Positions 26,914 to 38,716 of a stretch of 52,086 bases of DNA are shown here, one piece after another. The translations under genes and the position numbers were made by a program. The DNA lies in the IMG/VR virus record IMGVR_UViG_3300012281_000001. One strand, given 5' to 3'. Each line of letters starts with the position of its first letter. The stretch's first letter is position 1. The stretch comes from a virus. Lineage: Duplodnaviria > Heunggongvirae > Uroviricota > Caudoviricetes. Below the pieces are notes generated by a model. The model worked only from the letters and a program-made list of their open reading frames with translations, searched no databases and had not been told where the DNA came from.

Positions 26914-27135
26914 ATGGGATATTCAGCTGCTAAAGTGTCCACTCATATTGAGCTTGAGAAAAACCGTGGTTACTGGCGGGCAAAAGGGTTTGATCGTGAT
27001 AGTTGTCAACTGTCATTATCGCGCGGTGAAGAGAAAATAGAACGCACGCGCGGTCGCTGGCGTTTCTATGACGAGAACCATAAACAGGTAAAGGCAGAGC
27101 CGATCCTGTACACTTTACTTAAAACCATTATCTGA
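26914..27135 (+). CDS. candidate small protein in the cre leader
   Basis: 73-aa ATG ORF 5 nt after AGAGGTGA, ending 8 nt before cre; lies in the region expected to hold cre promoters. Confidence 0.25.
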   Translation: MGYSAAKVSTHIELEKNRGYWRAKGFDRDSCQLSLSRGEEKIERTRGRWRFYDENHKQVKAEPILYTLLKTII

Positions 27136-27142
27136 GTGTTAA

Positions 27143-28174
27143 ATGTCCAATTTACTGACCGTACACCAAAATTTGCCTGCATTACCGGTCGATGCAACGA
27201 GTGATGAGGTTCGCAAGAACCTGATGGACATGTTCAGGGATCGCCAGGCGTTTTCTGAGCATACCTGGAAAATGCTTCTGTCCGTTTGCCGGTCGTGGGC
27301 GGCATGGTGCAAGTTGAATAACCGGAAATGGTTTCCCGCAGAACCTGAAGATGTTCGCGATTATCTTCTATATCTTCAGGCGCGCGGTCTGGCAGTAAAA
27401 ACTATCCAGCAACATTTGGGCCAGCTAAACATGCTTCATCGTCGGTCCGGGCTGCCACGACCAAGTGACAGCAACGCTGTTTCACTAGTCATGCGGCGGA
27501 TCCGAAAAGAAAACGTTGATGCCGGTGAACGTGCAAAACAGGCACTAGCGTTCGAACGCACTGATTTCGACCAGGTTCGTTCACTCATGGAAAATAGCGA
27601 TCGCTGCCAGGATATACGTAATCTAGCATTTCTGGGGATTGCTTATAACACCCTGTTACGTATAGCCGAAATTGCCAGGATCAGGGTTAAAGATATCTCA
27701 CGTACTGACGGTGGGAGAATGTTAATCCATATTGGCAGAACGAAAACGCTGGTTAGCACCGCAGGTGTAGAGAAGGCACTTAGCCTGGGGGTAACTAAAC
27801 TGGTCGAGCGATGGATTTCTGTCTCTGGTGTGGCTGATGATCCGAATAACTACTTGTTTTGCCGGGTCAGAAAAAATGGTGTTGCCTCGCCATCATCCAC
27901 CAGCCAGCTATCAACTCGCGCCCTGGAAGGGATTTTTGAAGCAACTCACCGATTGATTTACGGGGCTAAGGATGACTCTGGTCAGAGGTACCTGGCCTGG
28001 TCTGGACACAGTGCCCGTGTCGGAGCCGCGCGAGATATGGCCCGCGCCGGAGTTTCAATACCGGAGATCATGCAAGCTGGTGGCTGGACCAACGTAAATA
28101 TTGTCATGAACTATATCCGTAATCTGGATAGTGAAACGGGGGCGATGGTGCGCCTGCTGGAAGATGGTGATTAG
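27143..28174 (+). CDS. cre: Cre tyrosine recombinase
   Basis: 343-aa protein MSNLLTVHQNLPALPVDATSDEVRKNLMDMFRDRQAFSEHTWK... recognised as P1 Cre; loxP about 420 bp upstream. Confidence 0.98.
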   Translation: MSNLLTVHQNLPALPVDATSDEVRKNLMDMFRDRQAFSEHTWKMLLSVCRSWAAWCKLNNRKWFPAEPEDVRDYLLYLQARGLAVKTIQQHLGQLNMLHRRSGLPRPSDSNAVSLVMRRIRKENVDAGERAKQALAFERTDFDQVRSLMENSDRCQDIRNLAFLGIAYNTLLRIAEIARIRVKDISRTDGGRMLIHIGRTKTLVSTAGVEKALSLGVTKLVERWISVSGVADDPNNYLFCRVRKNGVASPSSTSQLSTRALEGIFEATHRLIYGAKDDSGQRYLAWSGHSARVGAARDMARAGVSIPEIMQAGGWTNVNIVMNYIRNLDSETGAMVRLLEDGD

Positions 28175-28224: not shown

Positions 28225-28536
28225 ATGAGAAAGGATTTCAACATCGACGGAAAATATGTAGTGCTGTCTGTAAGCACTAATATTCAGTCGCCAGCCGTCA
28301 TTGTCACTGTAAAGCTGAGCGATAGAATGCCTGATATTGACTCAATATCCGTTGCGTTTCCTGTCAAAAGTATGCGTAGTGCTGAACATTTCGTAATGAA
28401 TGCCACCGAGGAAGAAGCACGGCGCGGTCTTGGTAAAGTGATGTCTGAGTTTGGCGAATTTCTGGGGCACGTTAACAAAGCCCTCACAATCAGTTCAGCA
28501 AGGTCCAAAGCGTTAACAGCTTCCATGATGAAATAA
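28225..28536 (+). CDS. cra: cre-associated protein
   Basis: 103-aa ORF between cre and ref with an operator upstream; symbol by position. Confidence 0.5.
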   Translation: MRKDFNIDGKYVVLSVSTNIQSPAVIVTVKLSDRMPDIDSISVAFPVKSMRSAEHFVMNATEEEARRGLGKVMSEFGEFLGHVNKALTISSARSKALTASMMK

Positions 28537-28783: not shown

Positions 28784-29344
28784 ATGAAAACAATCGAACA
28801 AAAAATTGAACAGTGCCGCAAGTGGCAGAAGGCAGCCAGAGAACGAGCGATCGCTCGGCAACGGGAGAAGTTGGCTGATCCGGTCTGGCGAGAATCTCAA
28901 TATCAGAAAATGCGGGATACTATCGACCGCCGTATCGCTAAACAGAAAGAACGCCCACCAGCCAGCAAAACGCGGAAAAGCGCGGTAAAAATAAAATCTC
29001 GTGGCTTGAAGGGGAGAACACCAACGGCGGAGGAACGGCGCATCGCCAATGCTCTTGGCGCTCTCCCCTGCATTGCCTGCTATATGCATGGAGTAATATC
29101 TAATGAGGTGTCTCTGCACCATATCGCCGGTCGTACCGCGCCGGGTTGTCATAAAAAGCAATTGCCACTTTGTAGATGGCACCACCAGCATGCAGCACCG
29201 GCTGAAGTAAGAGCAAAATACCCCTGGCTGGTCCCTGTTCATGCCGATGGTGTGGTTGGAGGCAAGAAAGAATTCACCCTGCTGAACAAGTCAGAGATGG
29301 AGTTACTGGCTGACGCCTATGAGATGGCAAACATCATGCACTAA
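28784..29344 (+). CDS. ref: Ref recombination enhancement function, HNH-type endonuclease
   Basis: 186-aa protein with basic N-terminus and C-terminal Cys/His cluster (CIACYMHG...HH...CRWHH); matches P1 Ref. Confidence 0.85.
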   Translation: MKTIEQKIEQCRKWQKAARERAIARQREKLADPVWRESQYQKMRDTIDRRIAKQKERPPASKTRKSAVKIKSRGLKGRTPTAEERRIANALGALPCIACYMHGVISNEVSLHHIAGRTAPGCHKKQLPLCRWHHQHAAPAEVRAKYPWLVPVHADGVVGGKKEFTLLNKSEMELLADAYEMANIMH

Positions 29345-29404: not shown

Positions 29405-29494
29405 ATCACACGCCCGGTACGGATGGATCCCTTTTCAAATATTCCATGGACGGCACAGTCTGAGTACCGGGCGCTACCTTCAGTTGTATTGCTA

Positions 29495-29521
29495 AGCCGC
29501 CGCTGGTGGCTTTTCTTTTTT
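29495..29521 (+). terminator. rho-independent terminator 13 nt upstream of the mat start codon
   Basis: AGCCGCC-GCT-GGTGGCT (one G-U pair) followed by TTTTCTTTTTT. Confidence 0.6.
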
Positions 29522-29533
29522 GTAGGGGGCGCT

Positions 29534-30175
29534 ATGGATAAGAAAATATGCGTTGTTTCGATGAGCGTCGGCAAACCGGCGTCAATGACTGCTGCATGGA
29601 TCAATAACGAGCTGATAATGGCTGAGCGGACCAGCTACCCTGAACGCCGCCGCGACATGGAACTCCAGCTGCTGCGCGAATTGCGAGAAAAAGAGGAAAA
29701 GGGTTTTATCGTGCTGGTGGAAGAGGAAAACAGCTTTATTACTGGTCGAGTTGGCCAGCGTGTAAGGTTGCGCGATCCCTTCATGAACGGCAGGCCGGTA
29801 CTAATTGAGGCAATGCAGATTTATAAGGAGCTAGAACGCCAGAAAGCAATCAAGTTACCGCGCAAGGAATCCGGCAAATACATCCTCCACCAAAGCATCT
29901 TCGATTCCGAACACGATAAAAAAGGCGATGAATTTTTCAACATCAACTGGAGCGAAATAACGACAGAGCATGTTCTGACGTTACTATGTTGCTTTGCGAC
30001 GGAATACAACAACGTTGCCAGCGCCGACTACATCAGGGCAATGGTTGGAGAAATTGATGCCCGCCAAGAACCGTCGTTACTAAGCTCCCTTGTGAATATA
30101 ATTCAAGCTACTCATGAAATGACCGCACGGAAAGTGCCTCAAGGTTCATTAACCGGCAGAGATAATTATCTTTAA
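29534..30175 (+). CDS. mat: maturation-control protein
   Basis: ATG 29534 within ORF 29387..30175, 4 nt after AGGGGG; symbol by position after ref. Confidence 0.45.
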   Translation: MDKKICVVSMSVGKPASMTAAWINNELIMAERTSYPERRRDMELQLLRELREKEEKGFIVLVEEENSFITGRVGQRVRLRDPFMNGRPVLIEAMQIYKELERQKAIKLPRKESGKYILHQSIFDSEHDKKGDEFFNINWSEITTEHVLTLLCCFATEYNNVASADYIRAMVGEIDARQEPSLLSSLVNIIQATHEMTARKVPQGSLTGRDNYL

Positions 30176-30182
30176 ACTTCTT

Positions 30183-30201
30183 GGGCGCTAACTATGCGCC
30201 C
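30183..30201. terminator. hairpin between convergent mat and the PIN-like gene
   Basis: GGGCGC-TAACTAT-GCGCCC in the 42-nt gap; weak flanking U/A tracts. Confidence 0.4.
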
Positions 30202-30217
30202 ACGCCCATTACATTAA

Positions 30218-31168
30218 TTAATCAATAAATACACGGAATGGCTCAAGCATCCCTTCAGGATCTTTATCCTCGTCACCAAGTGATATTAGTCTTCTGGCGA
30301 GTAGTTTTACGTCATCATCATCTTTAATGAAGCCAACCTGATCATTATTAAAATAGATATCGATTATTTTTAGGATTTGCTCTTGTGTAAAATGATTGAA
30401 TTTTAATAACTTTGCTACAACTCGATGTGTTGTGGCAAAACTGCCTGAGCGGCGTAATTCATCTATAGTGAAATTAACTTCCATTTCCGCTAAGTTACTG
30501 GCTTGAGGAAAGTGCTCACCTATAAACTCTGATAAGCGGGCATAGATATGTGGTTCTGAATCTTTCTTCTTTTTCCACTCGTACTTCAAATACTCATTCA
30601 TATCATCCTTTATAAAGGCACTTTTATAATCACCATCTTCAGTTATAATGTATATATCCTCTCCGTTTGGTATCGCCTTTAGCAAACACTCCCAATTGAC
30701 TGCATCACCATATGATTTATTTTTACCCGGAGGGTTGCCAAGATCGAATCGGCGTTTCCCTTTTTCTATTGTTTCATCATCAGCCTCTATCTTAGACGCT
30801 GCATCAAAAATCCTTTTAATTACAACATCGGCAGCTAAAGACTCTTCTTTAAATAAGTTCTGTATATCGGTAATAATTTCATTCTTTAGCCGACTAGCTT
30901 CTATAACCTTATCATTAAATAGTGAATGTTTTTCATGCTGCCTGAAAATCTGTGGTAGCGCGGGCTTGTAGTCTTTTGCAATTTCCTTTATGGTTTCAGA
31001 GAGAACTTTAGAACGATTTCTCCAGAACTCATTCACTAAAAGTTCTGGCAACCAAAGTTTTAAACGACCATATTGATGTAAGGCAAATACTTTATCTAGC
31101 TCATCTAGTTTATCCTTACCCATTCGATAAAATTCCAAATATAGATTTGTATCAATAAAAACATTCAT
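30218..31168 (-). CDS. PIN-like putative nuclease with C-terminal helical extension
   Basis: 316-aa ORF, ATG after AGGATG; N-terminal VFIDTN strand with D6, later GDAVNWE (D155) and ITEDGD (E177/D178/D180) acidic motifs; visibly AT-rich versus flanks; sits where P1 has res-mod. Confidence 0.7.
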   Translation of the reverse strand: MNVFIDTNLYLEFYRMGKDKLDELDKVFALHQYGRLKLWLPELLVNEFWRNRSKVLSETIKEIAKDYKPALPQIFRQHEKHSLFNDKVIEASRLKNEIITDIQNLFKEESLAADVVIKRIFDAASKIEADDETIEKGKRRFDLGNPPGKNKSYGDAVNWECLLKAIPNGEDIYIITEDGDYKSAFIKDDMNEYLKYEWKKKKDSEPHIYARLSEFIGEHFPQASNLAEMEVNFTIDELRRSGSFATTHRVVAKLLKFNHFTQEQILKIIDIYFNNDQVGFIKDDDDVKLLARRLISLGDEDKDPEGMLEPFRVFID

Positions 31169-31193
31169 ATCACATCCTAATTATAAGTAATTT

Positions 31194-31220
31194 AGGCCAC
31201 TCTAAAAAATAAAGTGGCCT
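31194..31220. terminator. hairpin between lxc and the PIN-like gene
   Basis: AGGCCACT-CTAAAAAATAA-AGTGGCCT, 8-bp stem and 11-nt A-rich loop; same stem sequence as the hairpin at 18681-18699. Confidence 0.4.
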
Positions 31221-31229
31221 AATAAGAAA

Positions 31230-31478
31230 TCAATCAGCATTCAGAAGCAATGCGTTATCTATGATGATCTGCTCCCATTCTTCGAATGCCCGATCGCGGA
31301 CACCTTGGGGAACACTGTTAGTTTTGAAATCGACGACCGTCCGCCATTTCCCGTCCGGGCGGTACATGCGCAGAGCTTTACTTCCCCCTTCCCTGCGCAC
31401 CTCAACGTTATGCTTGTCAGCAAACTCTTGTAATGCTCGTAGCGTCCCATGCTTTACTGTGTAGTATCGCTTTTTCAA
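31230..31478 (-). CDS. lxc: C1 corepressor-like protein
   Basis: 82-aa ORF downstream of ulx; size and position match P1 Lxc as remembered; TTG start overlapping ulx stop. Confidence 0.45.
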   Translation of the reverse strand: MKKRYYTVKHGTLRALQEFADKHNVEVRREGGSKALRMYRPDGKWRTVVDFKTNSVPQGVRDRAFEEWEQIIIDNALLLNAD

Positions 31479-31915
31479 GTTTTCTCTCCAGCCTGTGCCA
31501 AGGCTTCAACTTCCAAATCGTAAGACTCAAACTCATAGTCCTGGTCGTCAACTTCTTCAGGCACTGGCAGTAAATGCCAGGCTGAGTATATCTGACCATT
31601 ATCAAAACGCTCCTGGCTGTAGAGCGTCGCGGCTATGAGTGTCAGCGCCGGGCGGTCATAACGGTAAATTTTGCGAACGTCACGGTCAACGAGACGACCG
31701 AAATTACCATAACCGCGCTCCAGTAATAATTTTTTAATTTCCGGCCAGTATGGGCCATAGCTGCGGTACAGGCGGGGATTTTTCAGTAATCGCCCGCGTA
31801 GCCCTGACAGGAAGAAATCAACGTATTCGTCTTCTGTCTTTCCTAACAATGCCGTACGCAGTACCGCCTCAAGATATGTTTTATTCGGTTTTATTGTATC
31901 AGATAGTGTGGCCAT
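31475..31915 (-). CDS. ulx: Ulx, darB-operon protein
   Basis: 146-aa ORF immediately downstream of darB on the same strand; symbol by position. Confidence 0.5.
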   Translation of the reverse strand: MATLSDTIKPNKTYLEAVLRTALLGKTEDEYVDFFLSGLRGRLLKNPRLYRSYGPYWPEIKKLLLERGYGNFGRLVDRDVRKIYRYDRPALTLIAATLYSQERFDNGQIYSAWHLLPVPEEVDDQDYEFESYDLEVEALAQAGEKT

Positions 31916-31948: not shown

Positions 31949-34900
31949 TTATGCGTATTGTTGGATGACGGCCAGAACGTCCGCCACGTTGTGTTTTGTC
32001 TCGATAATCCACCAGTTACCCGGGAAATCGCTGTTCTTCGCCTTCGCTGGCAACCAGCGAGCGCCGAATTTCGCCTTGATTGCGTCTTTCGCACGGAAAA
32101 GAACCCCTTTCATGCCGGAGGCTTCCTGAAGCCCAAATACCTCGCCAGCGGCGAATTTTGGTGCGTACATCATCTTCAGGTCGGCGGTGGATACGCGATA
32201 ATTCAGACCAAGAGACTGAGCTATGCTGGTGGCATCACCCTGTATTGATGATAACTCTTCTTGTTTCTCGTTTCTGGCGGCAATTTCTTCCTCCGTAATG
32301 TTGCCAAGGGCCAGGTTTATCCGATCAGCGTCTGCCTGTTTCTCTTCATCGGTGCGCCCGGCAAGAACCGTGTTAATTCTCTGCAATATCTCCACATGAT
32401 TCTTGCGCATGCTGAGCAATTCCGGCGTAACCTCGTTAAGATCCACCAGCCTAAGGATGGCAAGGTCGGAAAACATTGATACCAGGTTGTACGTCATGCG
32501 ATAGCTGAGCTGACTATAGGCATTAGGTAGTTGCACCGCCTTCATTTTATAGGCATCCATAAATTTAGAGCCGTCGTTAACAACCTCCGCAATTGCAGGT
32601 GTGATTTTCCCTGTGGTGACGGCCTCCCTGATTGCTGTTACCCACGATTGAGTCAGCGCGGCGACTGCATGATTCAGATTGGCTTCCCGTTCTGCTGCGA
32701 TGCGCGCGCTTGCTGCGTCCATTGCCTGCTTGATCTCGTCTTTATTGCTGTAAATGCCAATGGTGCCAAACTGTGCTGTGGTGATCTCATAATCTGACGC
32801 CCGGAACTCATTGGTACCGAAAATGGCATTGGTGACTTCAAGTTCAGAATCCCCGTTACGAGTAGCCCCCTGGCTTGTTTTTTCCGGCATTCTGGCGATC
32901 GCATCCGCTATTTTCTCCTGAATTGCTTCAGGGGATAGCGTATCTCCGTATGACGCGATTACATCGCCATAATTGGAGCCAAACAGTTCAACCAGGAATG
33001 TTTCTGCCGAACGGATCTGGCGGTTATTCCCTTCCGACATCATACCAAGCACCCATTTTGCAATTGACGACTTCAGAGCGCCGTCACGGCGATCCGGGTA
33101 AACCGCATGCTTCAGTGGGTCCGTATAGGTACCAACAAAATCAATGCTATAGCCTGACTCTGTAGTCTGAACGCCGTATGAGTCAGTGATTTTGATCATG
33201 CCGCGCTGCTGGAAACGGTAGAAATCGTCACAGGAAATGATGTCGTTAATCCCGGCGATGGAGACGCCACCACTGATTTTCTGCATAACAGCATCTTCAT
33301 CGGGAGTTACATCAACCTGTTTATCCAGCGTCTTCACATCCCAGTTACCCGATTTGGTACCTTTGAAGGTAAAGATAATCTCCACGTCTGCGCGCTGGCT
33401 GTCGAAGTCCAGCGACTTAATGCGAACGATATCACCGGCACAATCGTAGTATTGGCCTACACGCCATGAGCGATCGCCGATAACAAGGAACTCACTCGCA
33501 TGGTTAACCAGGTCAGGATCAACATCCAGAATGCCTTTATTTATTGCATCCTCCACCAGCGGGCGCAGGCGTTTGATATCCGTCGCGGCCTTCTGGGTAC
33601 GGTTCAATAATTTCTCATAGCGGGAGATGGCTTGAGAGATATTAGCCTTCTGTTGAATAGCATTTTTTAACGAAGCGCGATATCGAGCTAACAACATACG
33701 GTCAGCGTTATGGACACTCCCCCAACGTGCCTTCCAGTCTGCGTTATCAGCTGCTTTGGCCATTGCTGCTTGTTTGAATTTGTCGACGTCGGCGGTGGTC
33801 TTTTCAAGTTCCGCTTTGCTTCGCTCCAATTCAGCGGTAAGAGCTTCTACATCTTCACCAGATGCGTGCTGCGCCTTGATGTAGTTCTGAAGGTCGATAG
33901 TAGCCTGTTCTTTCTGGCGAGCGCGTTTCGCTGCTTTCGCCTTATCCATTTGAACCTGCATCATTGCCAGACGTTCGCCATCATCCTTAGCGGTATACAT
34001 CTGCATTTCGATCATATCGTTGGCGTCGGCGTTCTCCATTTCTGACTTATCTGAACGGAGGATATCGGAGATCCAGCCTGCTTTACGCTTCAGCGTCTTC
34101 AGTCGGTATTCATCGAAAGAACCCTTGCCGCAGTAGTAGTGAACGCGAACGCTTGCACGGTTGGAGCCAACTCGGGCACCGCGACCGTTACGTTGTGCGA
34201 TACTGGCTGGAGTCCACGGCAACGTCAGGGGGTGGATATCCGTCGTTCCTCGATGCAGGTTGATACCCACCTCTGCCTTTTTGTTGCAGATGATGATCGG
34301 AGTCCGGCCCTCCTGGAAGTCGGCTGCAATCTTTTCCAGACCGCCCAACGACATTTCATTTTGCTGCGCGATATAGGCGTCATACAGAGCCATTTGCTCG
34401 TTGTATTTCGCTATCTGTGCATCTGTTGGTTCATCCGGTAACTCTTTCGGCGGTTTAACCGCTTTCAGTTTCTTACCGGTTTTACCTGCCTCGGCAACCG
34501 TCTGAGCATTCAGGATCCCCACCTTTGAAGGTTCAAGGTTAAGAGCATTGCAGATAATGCGCTTGAGCTTCTGGTGCTGCGTTTTTTCGTCCGTGAAGAT
34601 GATTTGCTTACCTTCCGGGAAAAACTCCTTCAGCGTGGCGATCAGCTTCGCGTATTTGGGCGTAACGGGATGAGTTACGGTCTGTTCGTCAATGCCAAAC
34701 CTGGCCAGGCGCTTATTCACTTCCTGCTCGAACGCTTCCGGAACCTGCAACTGAATAAACTCGCCCTTATCTATCAGGGAGTATTGCGATTGCTGCGTGA
34801 TTGAATCATCACTGTCGTCGTCTTCGCTGGTGGCTTGTTTAGGCAAACTGTCCGCCAGCTGCTGCACCGCATCGGCGTACTCCGGCAGGAAACGATAGGT

Positions 34901-37900
34901 GATCCGGCGATAGTACAGGTCCATGTCAGTACATACGCGGTCCATATCCCTGATTATTGAGAAGATCGGACGGGCTTTCTCGTGCTCAATCACGCCATCT
35001 TCATTGACCGAGGTCGTTACGCCATTGGTGGCTTTGGCCGCCGCTTCCGCCTGTTGACGCAATTCTTCATACGCCGCCAGTTGTTCTTCAGTAAGTGGTG
35101 CATCCTGCTGGTGTTCGTCCAGCTCCGGGATCTCCACGGTATCCTTAACGTCTTCCGCCGTTTTAAGCGTTACCCAGCGATGGAATATACCGCGCAGCGC
35201 ATCAAGGTTTTCAAAGCCCACCAGCGCCATTTTCTCTTCAACTTCACCGCTGATTTTCTGTACCGTTTCCAGCCTGGTCTTGCCGAAGAATTTAACGAAG
35301 TCATCAGGACCGTAGATCCCCATCTTCTGCCAGTATTCCTTCGGCAGAACATGAGAAAGCATGTTGTATGCATCGATCGGGGTGTTAACGACTGGCGTTG
35401 CAGTCAGGAGAACCGGTCCGCGCCCGCCATTCTTTTTCATCAGGTACGCGTTTTTAATTGCCATATCCCGCGCCGATTGCGCCACCGCGCTGGTGGGCAG
35501 ATAGGCCAGTTGTGACGCTTCGCGACCATTTTTATAGCTATTGCGGTAGTTGTGACCTTCGTCGGCGATCACACTATCGAAGCCCATATCCTCAAAGTAC
35601 GGATACTTCTCTGCTTTTTCGGTGCCGGTATCTGAATACTCCGACAATACCCGGCGACGCGCGGCCTCTTTGCGGTGGGAGTCGGAGTCCATTGCGCTGG
35701 CTACGCGCCCGGCGGCAACGAAGTCATAAAGCATATCCTGTGCATGCTCATCTACGGTGTCATCACGTAGCGGAATGCGGGCGTATTGTTCTTTGGTAAA
35801 CACGACTGCACGGTAATTTGAGTGCGGGATCGCGTTCATCCGCGCCGTGATAGTGGCTTCATCTGCCAGCTTAAGAGCATCGCGCATAACTGGAGTGCCA
35901 TCAGTACCAAGAACTGGTTTACCGTTCTCATCGAGCACCGGCACCTGGCGAATCTGATCGCCATCCATCAGCACATCAAGACCGACGAACAGGTAGTTAC
36001 TGAATGCCTCTTCACTCAGGAATTCTTTTGCTTCGTAATACCAGTTTTCCAGCACTGATTTAGGCACTACATACGCAGTACGGGTGGAGCGACCGTTCTC
36101 ATAGTTGAACGCCTCAAGCGCCAGCGCGGTCGTGGTTTTACCCAGCCCGGTGCCGAAGCCCAGGATGCCGCGCCCATCTTCGGACAGTCGGCGCACCTCG
36201 CTATTCTGGTAATCAAATGGCTGACGCTTACCGCTTAATCCCTTCAACCCAAGCGGATCACCAGAGTGTTCATACGGAATATTGCTATTGAAAACATCGT
36301 TGTATTTGGCAACCAGCTCATCGTAGCGATCGTGCGTCTTGATCCACTTATTGAACTGGTCCTCAAGCAGTGCCATCTGCTCGCGGTAGCCGTTCGCCGT
36401 CGCGCTATCTTTGCCACCGATACGCGCACCATTGAGATACTTTTCCAGCTGTGCCGGGAACCCGGTCGCGTTTTCTCCTGATTTACGGTCCCACTCGTAG
36501 CGGATCTCGCCTGTTTCTTTATCCTTGCGCTGGACGACACCGTATCGGTGCCCGACGAACAGGCCATCACCACCGTGATATGTGTCAGAAACCATTTCGT
36601 CGCCTTCCAGCTGCACTGACTGCACATAGCGCAGATCCGGATAGCCGTTTTCCTGTAAAAATTCCAGAATGACGGAACGGTCGAACCAACGGCTATTGAG
36701 CTTAAACCGGATATTTTCTGCTGGTGTCTTGATGCGCTTCTCTTCGATCGCTGCCAGCTGATTAAGGACGTTGTTCTTTACTGGACCGTCGGGGAGCGTG
36801 GCGAGGAATTCCTGTTTTGGAGCCACTATCTCGTTAATGTCGCCGCTGGTGGCGCGGGCAAACGGAACAATCCCGCCATACGGTGAAACCGCAATGCCAG
36901 GGGTGCTGGCCAATAAATTAAGCAACTCGTCATCACTGGCTGGCAGTTCGCCGGTAAACGCAAGGCGGAAATCATCGAGCTGGATTGGATCGCGAGTGAG
37001 ATCACTGTAGAGATAACGCAGGGTGTCCTGATAGCTGGTGGAGTCATAACTGGCGCTGGAATCATGCGTAACCAGTTTTCCTGTCAGCTCGTCAGAAATA
37101 GTGCCATCCAGCTTAATCGCACCACGGAAAGCAAACCAGGCGCGCGCACCGCTCCCCGACAATTTCGCTATAGGACCGCGACCAGGATTACCAAAGCGGT
37201 CAATCTCTGCCTGCAAACGGGATACCAGAGAAAGGCGCTGCTGTTCGATTTGTTCAGCACTATGCCCGGCGGCCTTCATATCCTGATATTCAATTAACAT
37301 CCGGCCAATCATCGCCCCGCGATACAAGCGTTCACGGTATTTTTCAGGCTGGCTGTTAATCCAGTCCACCAGTTGCACCATATCGTCGCTGATTGATGTG
37401 GTGTACTTATCGCGGACATTTGCCATCTGGGTAAATGTCATGCCGAGACGGCCTTCTGTTGTAGTCAGGTTGCGCTGAAGAGCCTCCCAGCTATCCGCGC
37501 CATAACTGGCAGCATCGATCTTAAGTTCCTTCCCGGCATCAGCTTCAATCCAGCGACCACCAGCATATTTTTGCCATACACCATTAATCAGGCGCATTTC
37601 CCCTTCACCAACAACGTCTGCTGTCGGTGACGGTTCAGCCATATCGAGCAAAGACCAGTCGATACGACTTTCGAAACGATGAATCAGCTTCGCTTTAAGA
37701 GCCTGGTTATCAATCTGCCCGTCGGCACGAACCTCAATACGCCCCTGGAATCCCTTCTCCTGGGTGCCATGAACAAACCGGCGGCCGTCCTTTTCAAACC
37801 ACTTGCCAGAAATAAACGTTGGCCAAAGCACATTTGCCGATTCAAGAGTGCCTTCATCCACCAGGGGGATTTTCTCAGCCATCTCCGCCGGATGTTTGCG

Positions 37901-38716
37901 CATCAGCACCACGTCAACGACCGTACTGGTCCCGTTTGCGTCAAAAGTACCGGTAGGCAAGCGGTGGGCACCAAGAAATTCAGCTTTCCGTGATAGGCGC
38001 AGGCGTAACCGCTTCATGTTTGAACCTGAAACAATGGACGGCGGCACAATCACGCACATGAATCCGCCTGGCTTTATCTTGTCCAGCATGCGGAGCATGA
38101 AGTAAGACCCCATATCCGTTTCTTCTGCGTAAGGCTTATCGATGTTGCGTGTGTTATCACGACCGCCGAACGGAACGTTACCCACAACATGGTCGAATGA
38201 ATCGTTAGGCGTGCTTATAGCCAGCTGTTCGAACGGGGAAATCTGTACGCTGTCTTCCGGATGTAACAGCTGGTTTATACGACCGGAAACACTGCTGATC
38301 TCAGTCGCGGTCATCACCGTACCAACCGGTTTTGTCTCATTAAAAACGCCGGTGCCCGCCGATGGTTCCAGAGTGTTACCTACGTCCGCGCCATAGAGCT
38401 TCATGATCTCCCAGACGCCTTCAGCGATAGGCTTTGGTGTGTAATATTCGGAGACGGACCCGCCAATGCCGCCTTCACCAGTGTACCCGGCCAGGATCTG
38501 GCGCTGTTCATCTGTCAGTGTCGCGCCGTCCACCAGCGAATTAAGCAAATCTATCGCCTTCTGATTCGCCTCCCGGCGCAGCCGGTCATAGCTTTTGCCT
38601 TCCACCTTTTCCACGCCGTATCTAATCGGCGCTCGGTGAGATGTTATTGCCCTAATGTATTTCAATATTTCGCTGACACTTGAACAGCGAAACACCCCCA
38701 TAGATAGCTTGTTCAT
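31949..38716 (-). CDS. darB: DarB antirestriction protein (methyltransferase plus SF2 helicase)
   Basis: 2255-aa ORF; N-terminal GNVPFGG MTase-like motif; GFGTGLGKTT Walker A and IADEGHNYRN DExH box; size and position match P1 DarB. Confidence 0.9.
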   Translation of the reverse strand: MNKLSMGVFRCSSVSEILKYIRAITSHRAPIRYGVEKVEGKSYDRLRREANQKAIDLLNSLVDGATLTDEQRQILAGYTGEGGIGGSVSEYYTPKPIAEGVWEIMKLYGADVGNTLEPSAGTGVFNETKPVGTVMTATEISSVSGRINQLLHPEDSVQISPFEQLAISTPNDSFDHVVGNVPFGGRDNTRNIDKPYAEETDMGSYFMLRMLDKIKPGGFMCVIVPPSIVSGSNMKRLRLRLSRKAEFLGAHRLPTGTFDANGTSTVVDVVLMRKHPAEMAEKIPLVDEGTLESANVLWPTFISGKWFEKDGRRFVHGTQEKGFQGRIEVRADGQIDNQALKAKLIHRFESRIDWSLLDMAEPSPTADVVGEGEMRLINGVWQKYAGGRWIEADAGKELKIDAASYGADSWEALQRNLTTTEGRLGMTFTQMANVRDKYTTSISDDMVQLVDWINSQPEKYRERLYRGAMIGRMLIEYQDMKAAGHSAEQIEQQRLSLVSRLQAEIDRFGNPGRGPIAKLSGSGARAWFAFRGAIKLDGTISDELTGKLVTHDSSASYDSTSYQDTLRYLYSDLTRDPIQLDDFRLAFTGELPASDDELLNLLASTPGIAVSPYGGIVPFARATSGDINEIVAPKQEFLATLPDGPVKNNVLNQLAAIEEKRIKTPAENIRFKLNSRWFDRSVILEFLQENGYPDLRYVQSVQLEGDEMVSDTYHGGDGLFVGHRYGVVQRKDKETGEIRYEWDRKSGENATGFPAQLEKYLNGARIGGKDSATANGYREQMALLEDQFNKWIKTHDRYDELVAKYNDVFNSNIPYEHSGDPLGLKGLSGKRQPFDYQNSEVRRLSEDGRGILGFGTGLGKTTTALALEAFNYENGRSTRTAYVVPKSVLENWYYEAKEFLSEEAFSNYLFVGLDVLMDGDQIRQVPVLDENGKPVLGTDGTPVMRDALKLADEATITARMNAIPHSNYRAVVFTKEQYARIPLRDDTVDEHAQDMLYDFVAAGRVASAMDSDSHRKEAARRRVLSEYSDTGTEKAEKYPYFEDMGFDSVIADEGHNYRNSYKNGREASQLAYLPTSAVAQSARDMAIKNAYLMKKNGGRGPVLLTATPVVNTPIDAYNMLSHVLPKEYWQKMGIYGPDDFVKFFGKTRLETVQKISGEVEEKMALVGFENLDALRGIFHRWVTLKTAEDVKDTVEIPELDEHQQDAPLTEEQLAAYEELRQQAEAAAKATNGVTTSVNEDGVIEHEKARPIFSIIRDMDRVCTDMDLYYRRITYRFLPEYADAVQQLADSLPKQATSEDDDSDDSITQQSQYSLIDKGEFIQLQVPEAFEQEVNKRLARFGIDEQTVTHPVTPKYAKLIATLKEFFPEGKQIIFTDEKTQHQKLKRIICNALNLEPSKVGILNAQTVAEAGKTGKKLKAVKPPKELPDEPTDAQIAKYNEQMALYDAYIAQQNEMSLGGLEKIAADFQEGRTPIIICNKKAEVGINLHRGTTDIHPLTLPWTPASIAQRNGRGARVGSNRASVRVHYYCGKGSFDEYRLKTLKRKAGWISDILRSDKSEMENADANDMIEMQMYTAKDDGERLAMMQVQMDKAKAAKRARQKEQATIDLQNYIKAQHASGEDVEALTAELERSKAELEKTTADVDKFKQAAMAKAADNADWKARWGSVHNADRMLLARYRASLKNAIQQKANISQAISRYEKLLNRTQKAATDIKRLRPLVEDAINKGILDVDPDLVNHASEFLVIGDRSWRVGQYYDCAGDIVRIKSLDFDSQRADVEIIFTFKGTKSGNWDVKTLDKQVDVTPDEDAVMQKISGGVSIAGINDIISCDDFYRFQQRGMIKITDSYGVQTTESGYSIDFVGTYTDPLKHAVYPDRRDGALKSSIAKWVLGMMSEGNNRQIRSAETFLVELFGSNYGDVIASYGDTLSPEAIQEKIADAIARMPEKTSQGATRNGDSELEVTNAIFGTNEFRASDYEITTAQFGTIGIYSNKDEIKQAMDAASARIAAEREANLNHAVAALTQSWVTAIREAVTTGKITPAIAEVVNDGSKFMDAYKMKAVQLPNAYSQLSYRMTYNLVSMFSDLAILRLVDLNEVTPELLSMRKNHVEILQRINTVLAGRTDEEKQADADRINLALGNITEEEIAARNEKQEELSSIQGDATSIAQSLGLNYRVSTADLKMMYAPKFAAGEVFGLQEASGMKGVLFRAKDAIKAKFGARWLPAKAKNSDFPGNWWIIETKHNVADVLAVIQQYA

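Follow-up and report, generated by a model that had tools for sequence, protein, structure and literature searches.

The res and mod genes of phage P1, which encode the type III restriction-modification (R-M) system EcoP1I, lie in one of the eight low-GC variable regions of P1-like phage-plasmids (PMC9603915), and a survey of clinical isolates found P1-like elements with type III R-M, CapRel, dGTPase and PrrC, with no mention of a PIN gene (bioRxiv 10.1101/2025.09.12.675607). CapRel-SJ46 is an anti-phage protein in which toxin and antitoxin are fused; its C-terminal domain serves as the antitoxin and also senses the capsid (PMC9712102). As to nucleases of the PIN type, DUF4935 has been placed in the VapC group of PIN-like domains as a family of unknown function that is usually monocistronic (PMC5499597), and HEC-03, an ABC ATPase plus a VapC-like PIN protein, is a validated defence system in which a PIN effector occurs without VapB; the study that described it also named 145 candidates, the PDC systems, chosen for their embedding in BREX, DISARM or Type I R-M loci (bioRxiv 10.1101/2024.01.29.577857). 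Here we analysed the virus record IMGVR_UViG_3300012281_000001, a P1-like Caudoviricetes sequence of 52,086 nucleotides (nt; hereafter the window), in which a single gene for a PIN-domain protein stands between mat and lxc in place of res and mod. We propose, with a probability of about one half, that this PIN gene, an exchangeable cargo of the P1-like phage-plasmid, encodes a single-protein nuclease for anti-phage defence or abortive infection. The central features, in window coordinates, are as follows.

30218-31168, minus strand: open reading frame (ORF) of 316 codons plus stop with an ATG start, encoding a PIN_12 domain and a C-terminal helical domain (ORF list, Pfam).
30518-31168, minus strand: PIN nuclease domain, residues 1-217, including a helical insert of about 60 residues at 61-124.
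30221-30517, minus strand: C-terminal domain, residues 218-316, a six-helix alpha-solenoid-like module.
30105-31231: segment of 1127 nt without nucleotide homology to reference P1 (blastn against P1 and other slot variants).
29423-30175, plus strand: mat (maturation control), left flank of the slot, with a 3' end that is mosaic between P1-like elements.
31230-31478, minus strand: lxc (modulator of the C1 repressor), right flank of the slot.

The original prediction for this locus had described a minus-strand frame of 316 codons, which the ORF list confirmed, and had suggested a PIN-like fold for its product. That fold was supported by Pfam, by the structure model and by the conservation of the acidic residues, the nuclease function being a predicted one. 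PIN_12 (PF16289, formerly DUF4935) matched residues 3-181 with 65.9 bits (cut-off 32; 7.6e-18) and was aligned in full (model positions 1-172 of 172), and PIN_8 (PF18476) matched with 55.1 bits (cut-off 26.1; 1.4e-14). The predicted structure (pLDDT 91.2) displayed a three-layer alpha/beta/alpha fold with a parallel sheet, and the nearest structural relatives of its PIN domain were VapC ribonucleases, with 10-17% sequence identity to the VapC structures. Across an alignment of 39 relatives (34-95% identity), the residues D6, N8, E47, R50, N51, R52, D114, R140, P146-K149, S152, G154, D155, W159, D178, D180, S183, E197 and W198 were invariant, and in the model the acidic positions D6, E47, D114, D155, D178 and D180 fit the canonical PIN sites relative to the strands. 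The invariant basic residues R50, R52, R140 and K149 likewise speak for a PIN domain. Four of the acidic residues pointed out originally (D6, D155, D178 and D180) thus held, but E177 varied among the homologs, and E47 and D114 had been overlooked. These data show that residues 1-217 form a VapC-type PIN domain with a complete invariant acidic set, putatively metal-binding. Searches of NCBIfam and of the sequences of solved structures with the PIN protein returned no match, PHROGs gave one family, of unknown function, and RefSeq labels the protein 'PIN domain-containing' or 'DUF4935 domain-containing protein'.

The C-terminal domain gave a single lead. Its residues 226-297 matched positions 298-369 of the 384-position PADLOC model PDC-S34 (PDLC05001) at 1.4e-11, and the first 300 or so positions of the model were unmatched by the window protein, so that the match falls short of most of the model. 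The model was also matched by 39 of the 39 aligned relatives, the matched span being reported for the window protein only. In an exhaustive profile search with the domain, which returned 1320 matches, the best 150 carried it almost exclusively at about residues 220-320 of PIN_12 proteins of 316-350 amino acids (aa), or were fragments. Apart from fragments, the architecture was nearly always the same in these 150, and the C-terminal domain is therefore tied to the nuclease rather than freely shuffled; the idea of a sensor shuffled onto other effectors was rejected on the same ground. No DNA-binding fold was recognised in the domain. This bears on the possibility of another mode of defence, a restriction-like nuclease that would cut incoming phage or plasmid DNA (modified or structured DNA, for example) without killing the cell, with the C-terminal domain recognising the target. 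We consider such a DNA-cutting enzyme decidedly unlikely, given that the nearest structural relatives are ribonucleases and that neither a methyltransferase nor any other self-protection partner accompanies the gene.

Two independent relatives, one in the Flavobacterium genome CP109995.1 and one on a metagenome contig (L104:4402-5357 and L105:4402-5363), are split into a PIN ORF of about 210 aa and an overlapping ORF of about 120 aa for the C-terminal domain. Mapping of fused homologs onto the DNA traced both splits to the loss of 1 nt from an A7/A8 run coding for a conserved 'KK' linker, at about residue 203-205 of the fused protein. The frame switch within the run is seamless in both pairs, which were therefore rejected as separate toxin and antitoxin genes and classed as frameshifted fused genes. 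About 6 of 44 short matches to the C-terminal domain begin at the same frame switch; the window gene has only an interrupted A5 tract at the position of the run. The split copies could be pseudogenes or products of phase variation, transcriptional slippage or homopolymer sequencing error.

The position of the gene was examined in 80 lxc-containing viral contigs and in annotated phages, from which the stretch running from a conserved point in mat to the lxc stop codon was extracted (loci L002-L085; cargo representatives L084, L046, L029, L045, L074, L038, L024 and L028). The 79 P1-like loci fell into 14 slot clusters, which were grouped as 11 kinds of content:

SIR2-like proteins in two forms (338 and 435 aa): 13 loci.
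CapRel-type RelA/SpoT proteins in two forms: 11 loci.
346-aa DUF2971 protein matching PADLOC PDC-S31: 10 loci.
The PIN gene of the window: 8 loci.
Type III res-mod: 8 loci.
Empty slot of about 40 nt: 8 loci.
GNAT acetyltransferase: 7 loci.
AraC regulator plus EAL protein: 5 loci.
Antirepressor plus helix-turn-helix protein plus JukA: 4 loci.
Pair of YaaC-like and deoxyribosyltransferase-like proteins: 4 loci.
Small lipoprotein: 1 locus.

The slot is thus one in which type III R-M, CapRel, SIR2-like, PDC-S31-like and JukA genes alternate, as expected of a defence hotspot, and the experimentally validated CapRel-SJ46, the RelA/SpoT protein of Salmonella phage SJ46, is encoded exactly between mat and lxc. 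Because the PIN gene shares its slot with these five kinds of cargo, the defence reading gains support. Phage JL22 carries the PIN gene of the window as 'hypothetical protein gp7' (PMC9603915). The gene had been noted originally as more AT-rich than the backbone, and it is indeed foreign, AT-rich cargo: the GC content is 0.354 for the ORF against 0.482 and 0.517 for the two flanks, and windowed values run at 0.33-0.38 over 30150-31350 against 0.45-0.55 on either side. All slot cargo is low in GC (0.33-0.43), however, so the AT-richness is not special to the PIN gene.

The predicted replacement of res-mod between mat and lxc was likewise upheld by alignment to P1. Homology to P1 stops at 30104, inside mat and 71 nt before its end, and restarts at 31232, at the lxc stop codon (blastn), so that 30105-31231 stands in for P1 3398-9751, which comprises the end of mat, res, mod and IS5. 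The Mat protein of the window keeps its full 250 residues, of which 1-199 equal P1 Mat and the last 51 hold 22 substitutions. Among slot variants the breakpoints within mat differ, lying about 72, 129, 141 or 200 nt from the start of its final 200 nt (window 29976-30175); the last 50 or so residues of Mat therefore change along with the cargo, although its length does not. Several breakpoints in the 3' end of mat point to homologous recombination in the flanks, by which, as far as these alignments indicate, the cargo appears to be exchanged. The mat gene is annotated as frameshifted in the Escherichia coli plasmid pCREC446-2 (L097:19316-19958), whose PIN ORF is 100% identical to that of the window, and as two coding sequences in phage JL22 (L001:2224-2975); in the window it is one intact frame of 250 codons.

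A search of 5.8 billion proteins returned 157 full-length relatives of the PIN protein; the best 120 of the 157 were nearly all 312-345 aa long with the same Pfam domains and came from Enterobacterales, Vibrio and many Bacteroidota. P1-like plasmids hold two alleles of the gene, at nucleotide identities of at least 98.5% and about 91%. Between the alleles dS (synonymous divergence) was 0.43 and dN (nonsynonymous divergence) 0.031, giving a dN/dS of 0.072, or 0.055 for the PIN half and 0.118 for the C-terminal domain, which shows purifying selection on both halves. The flanking backbone, at about 96-98% identity, is far less diverged than the alleles, a pattern that fits old lineages of cassettes passing from one backbone to another. 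The lxc-ulx backbone was present in 699 of 5426 complete E. coli genomes (about 13%), and 30 of these 699 (about 4%) had the PIN gene, always on plasmids of about 90-108 kb. With so small a share of P1-type backbones, the gene is minority, dispensable cargo. In PLSDB, 23 plasmid records contained it, among them a Salmonella plasmid 100% identical over the query and a 217-kb Klebsiella IncF/IncY cointegrate. The latter, pCRKP-59-KPC of Klebsiella pneumoniae (L098, NZ_KX928752.1 97390-110443), is a conjugative plasmid of a KPC-type strain, apparently a P1-like/F-type cointegrate, with the P1 segment c1-cre-ref-mat-PIN-lxc-ulx-darB.

A relative was found in a phage of another kind:

L096:3468-4409 (NC_009382.1 12212-13153), antisense: ORF18 of the Ralstonia P2-like phage RSA1, 313 aa, with a different C-terminal region.

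Its PIN domain is of the same kind as that of the window protein, with 28% identity over residues 3-201, and ORF18 sits between a baseplate spike gene and a virion morphogenesis gene, a moron-like position.

Sampled homologs more distant than the plasmid alleles had the following neighbourhoods:

Enterobacterial homolog, 63% identical: AlpA-type island with Type I R-M, an HNH protein, Mrr, a ScoMcrA-like protein, CbtA/CbeA and SymE.
Vibrio homolog: adjoins a 1915-aa DUF4011 helicase-nuclease.
Pantoea homolog: within a prophage.
Salegentibacter homolog: adjoins EndoU and DUF3800 genes.
Metagenomic homolog P0041: overlaps the end of an MmeI-like R-M enzyme gene by 4 nt.
Serratia homolog: directly beside Hachiman.
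Homolog on an integrative element with a serine recombinase: beside an AAA/DUF6414 pair and a MutH/methylase pair.
Flavobacterium homolog: in an array with AbiGi and zeta toxin.
Two frameshifted homolog copies: adjoining a Qat system, and near ApeA and TIR genes.

The Flavobacterium array (L101:1-14981, contig DASVUR010000004.1 of a metagenome-assembled genome) consists of small same-strand ORFs separated by gaps of mostly about 150-280 nt; it includes DUF3800, chloramphenicol acetyltransferase, zeta toxin and AbiGi genes and looks like a cassette array. These neighbourhoods of distant homologs give the defence reading further support. No neighbour gene was conserved across the sampled contexts, so the PIN gene acts alone. 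True embedding in BREX, DISARM or Type I R-M was found in none of them.

The same contexts bear on whether the gene might serve offence or counter-defence of the phage-plasmid, degrading RNA of the host or of a competitor during lytic growth or establishment of P1, or disabling a host defence. The gene does lie next to the Dar anti-restriction genes ulx and darB, and relatives occur within phages, antisense among the tail genes of RSA1 and in the Pantoea prophage. Most homologs, however, are chromosomal and lie in islands beside defence systems rather than in phages, the alternatives in the slot are defence genes (R-M, CapRel, SIR2) rather than anti-defence genes, and presence on 30 of 699 P1-type backbones makes the gene dispensable for the P1 life cycle. 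An offensive role is therefore improbable.

Several observations weigh against the defence reading. Context had been the basis of the predicted single-gene anti-phage or abortive effector, and slot and neighbourhoods do favour it, but the slot also carries cargo with no link to defence (AraC plus EAL, GNAT, the lipoprotein, and the YaaC plus deoxyribosyltransferase-like pair), so position alone is no proof of defence. About 8 of 12 sampled neighbourhoods had defence genes or lay on mobile elements, a small sample with no null expectation, and 2 of 10 sampled full-length homologs had plainly housekeeping or metabolic neighbours. PDC-S34, matched over 72 residues of the window protein, is itself only a candidate, and literature searches on PDC-S34, DUF4935, PF16289 and PIN-type single-gene defence yielded no functional study. 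The C-terminal fold is a generic helical repeat that gives nothing specific, and the split gene versions, being poly-A frameshifts, lend no support to an origin by fusion of a toxin with an antitoxin.

Some of these points would suit an accessory role unrelated to conflict, such as an RNA-processing or regulatory nuclease hitch-hiking in a general 'moron' slot. AraC plus EAL, GNAT and lipoprotein genes share the slot, the two homologs among metabolic or housekeeping genes fit the same picture, and the family has been listed as of unknown function since 2017 (PMC5499597). Against it stand the patchy, horizontally transferred distribution across distant phyla, the repeated adjacency to defence systems and mobile elements, and strong purifying selection despite dispensability; we regard such a role as rather unlikely.

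On the preferred reading, that of an anti-phage nuclease, the PIN protein would be made at a low level from the prophage-plasmid and would be harmless in uninfected cells. Infection by another phage would switch it on, and nucleic acid would be cut, most likely RNA (tRNA, rRNA or mRNA), as with other PIN enzymes of the VapC group. The infection would be halted, probably at the cost of the infected cell (abortive infection), and the P1 lysogen population and the plasmid with it would be protected from competing phages. By analogy with CapRel-SJ46, the C-terminal helical domain would be the likeliest place for regulation or for recognising the trigger. The analogy can be extended, tentatively, to a family of single-polypeptide immune nucleases in which a PIN ribonuclease would be held inactive by its C-terminal solenoid and freed by a phage protein or nucleic acid. 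It is equally tentative to see in such a family a nuclease counterpart of CapRel, spread by cassettes among phage-plasmids, prophages and defence islands from Enterobacterales to Bacteroidota.

The original prediction had also named a plasmid-addiction effector as an option, that is, a toxin of the toxin-antitoxin type that would kill cells losing the phage-plasmid. The PIN domain is of the VapC toxin type, and R-M systems, the occupants of the slot in P1, can act as addiction modules (PMC10879196). The PIN ORF is, however, separated from mat by 42 nt and from lxc by 61 nt, and with no antitoxin gene and no room for one, addiction is unlikely. An Rfam search near the gene (E up to 1) gave no match and no tandem repeats were found there, on which grounds an RNA antitoxin or other structured RNA was rejected. 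Moreover, phd-doc is already present in the backbone, a single stable polypeptide offers no obvious route to killing after plasmid loss, and the homologs are mostly chromosomal single genes. Altogether we hold addiction to be very improbable.

The predicted expression signals of the PIN gene fared differently:

31173-31178, minus strand: Shine-Dalgarno-like AGGATG, 6 nt 5' of the ATG of the PIN gene (sequence, allele comparison).
31180-31185, minus strand: TATAAT hexamer, 11 nt 5' of the same ATG (sequence).

The ribosome-binding site stood, being kept in the second allele as GAGGATG. The TATAAT is present as described, but the second allele reads CTTAAT at this position, and a promoter scan upstream of the PIN gene found no promoter and did not report the hexamer. 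As a promoter element it is doubtful, because it is without a good -35 element, is not conserved and lies too near the ribosome-binding site; we infer that a transcript begun there would start within or after this site and hence be without it. Read-through of the lxc terminator and a weak promoter are both possible sources of transcription. At its two ends (30221-30233 and 31151-31163) the ORF carries a direct repeat of 13 nt, with 12 of the positions identical, which encodes the peptide VFID at both termini (N-terminal MNVFID, C-terminal RVFID-stop); it may be due to chance. Enterobacterial and Vibrio homologs close with similar tails, F-x-x-(F/L)-I-(D/N/E). An antisense frame of 107 codons within the PIN gene (30648-30971, plus strand) is without support and most likely a chance frame in AT-rich DNA.

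Around the slot, the gene order of the window is that of P1, namely cra, cre, c8, ref, mat, the PIN ORF in the slot, lxc, ulx and darB, and further P1 backbone genes (phd-doc, pacAB, c1, lyz and ssb) are distributed across the window. The flanking genes and two hairpins are located as follows:

26914-27135: cra.
27143-28174: cre.
28225-28536: c8.
28784-29344: ref.
31475-31915: ulx.
31949-38716: darB, an intact ORF of 2255 codons.
30183-30201: mat-side hairpin, within the 42 nt that separate mat from the PIN gene, which converge here.
31192-31222, minus strand: lxc-side hairpin, part of the exchanged segment, directly 3' of the lxc stop codon (terminator scan, inverted repeat).

The flanks had been predicted to follow P1 order, and they contain the same genes in the same order as P1; the predicted cre-cra order was slightly off, since cra comes before cre, with c8 placed after cre and ahead of ref. 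The darB gene is annotated as frameshifted in pF1273-3 (L095) and is intact here.

Both hairpins that had been said to bound the gene are present, but they read as ordinary terminators and do not mark a cassette. The lxc-side hairpin forms 13 pairs (dG, the folding free energy, -19.7 kcal/mol; z -6.6), and 0 of 200 shuffles fold as well. The mat-side hairpin (plus strand, dG -14.2 kcal/mol and z -4.1; minus strand, dG -15.0 kcal/mol and z -2.3) could serve as a terminator for both mat and the PIN gene. Every slot variant, the empty slot included, has its own GC-rich hairpin right after lxc. The hairpin at 31192-31222 is therefore the local version of the lxc terminator, whose position is conserved and whose sequence is swapped with the cargo. 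Repeats common to both slot borders were sought and none were found. With the lxc-side hairpin occurring in all variants and no shared border repeats, a role of the hairpins as cassette boundaries or recombination sites was rejected. Several of the post-lxc hairpins take the form GCCCGG-N7-CCGGGC.

Already known are the protein family (Pfam, RefSeq), the variable region and the fact that P1-like elements carry defence cargo. New are the PIN_12 protein as a recurrent alternative in the slot of EcoP1I and CapRel-SJ46, the link of its C-terminal domain, by profile match, to PDC-S34, and the catalogue of other uncharacterised mat-lxc cargo, which includes the DUF2971 protein, the YaaC plus deoxyribosyltransferase-like pair and GNAT. 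If the PIN gene does protect against phages, a compact single-gene nuclease system of about 950 bp would be added to the bacterial immune repertoire, the widespread PIN_12/DUF4935 family would receive its first function, and the mat-lxc slot could be used for discovering defence genes in the manner of the P2 and P4 hotspots. The defence cargo of P1-like elements also bears on phage therapy and on competition among mobile elements, since these elements move antibiotic-resistance genes and clinical lineages are among their hosts.

The view that no named defence family fits the window protein was borne out, the sole link being the partial match to PDC-S34. The two have the C-terminal helical domain in common and are both single-gene candidates; PDC-S34 is not named in the supplements of the paper on the PADLOC candidates. 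The PADLOC HEC models gave no match to the window protein, and HEC-03 consists of two genes with a separate ATPase, unlike the solo PIN gene. In Pfam the protein is a member of PIN_12 and PIN_8, above the gathering cut-off over the whole PIN_12 model; the model covers the nuclease half only, and both are families without assigned function. With VapC of the VapBC systems it shares the PIN domain of the VapC group. It differs from VapC in having no VapB gene, in being more than twice as long, in the 60-residue helical insert after strand 2 and the added C-terminal helical domain, and in invariant motifs of its own (EFxRNR and GNPPGKxxSxGDAxxWE). No VapB-type antitoxin gene is adjacent in the window, and no neighbour recurs among the sampled homologs.

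The other occupants of the slot are compared by position and by design. EcoP1I occupies the same locus in P1 and presumably confers the same benefit on the lysogen, but it is unrelated to the PIN gene and comprises two genes of about 5 kb that discriminate self from non-self by methylation. CapRel-SJ46 is AT-rich cargo of similar size in the same mat-lxc slot and one polypeptide that joins a toxic enzyme at the N-terminus to a regulatory domain at the C-terminus, and the window protein too is a two-domain single polypeptide. CapRel-SJ46 is, however, a toxSAS pyrophosphokinase with no kinship in sequence or fold to the PIN protein, and its toxicity, its rescue in trans and its capsid trigger have been demonstrated, whereas for the window protein all three would be hypothetical. 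CapRel also has unfused two-gene relatives, whereas the split forms in the PIN family are frameshifts. As a predicted single-gene nuclease within a prophage hotspot, the PIN gene is a reasonable defence candidate of a kind already familiar, rather than a categorically new system.

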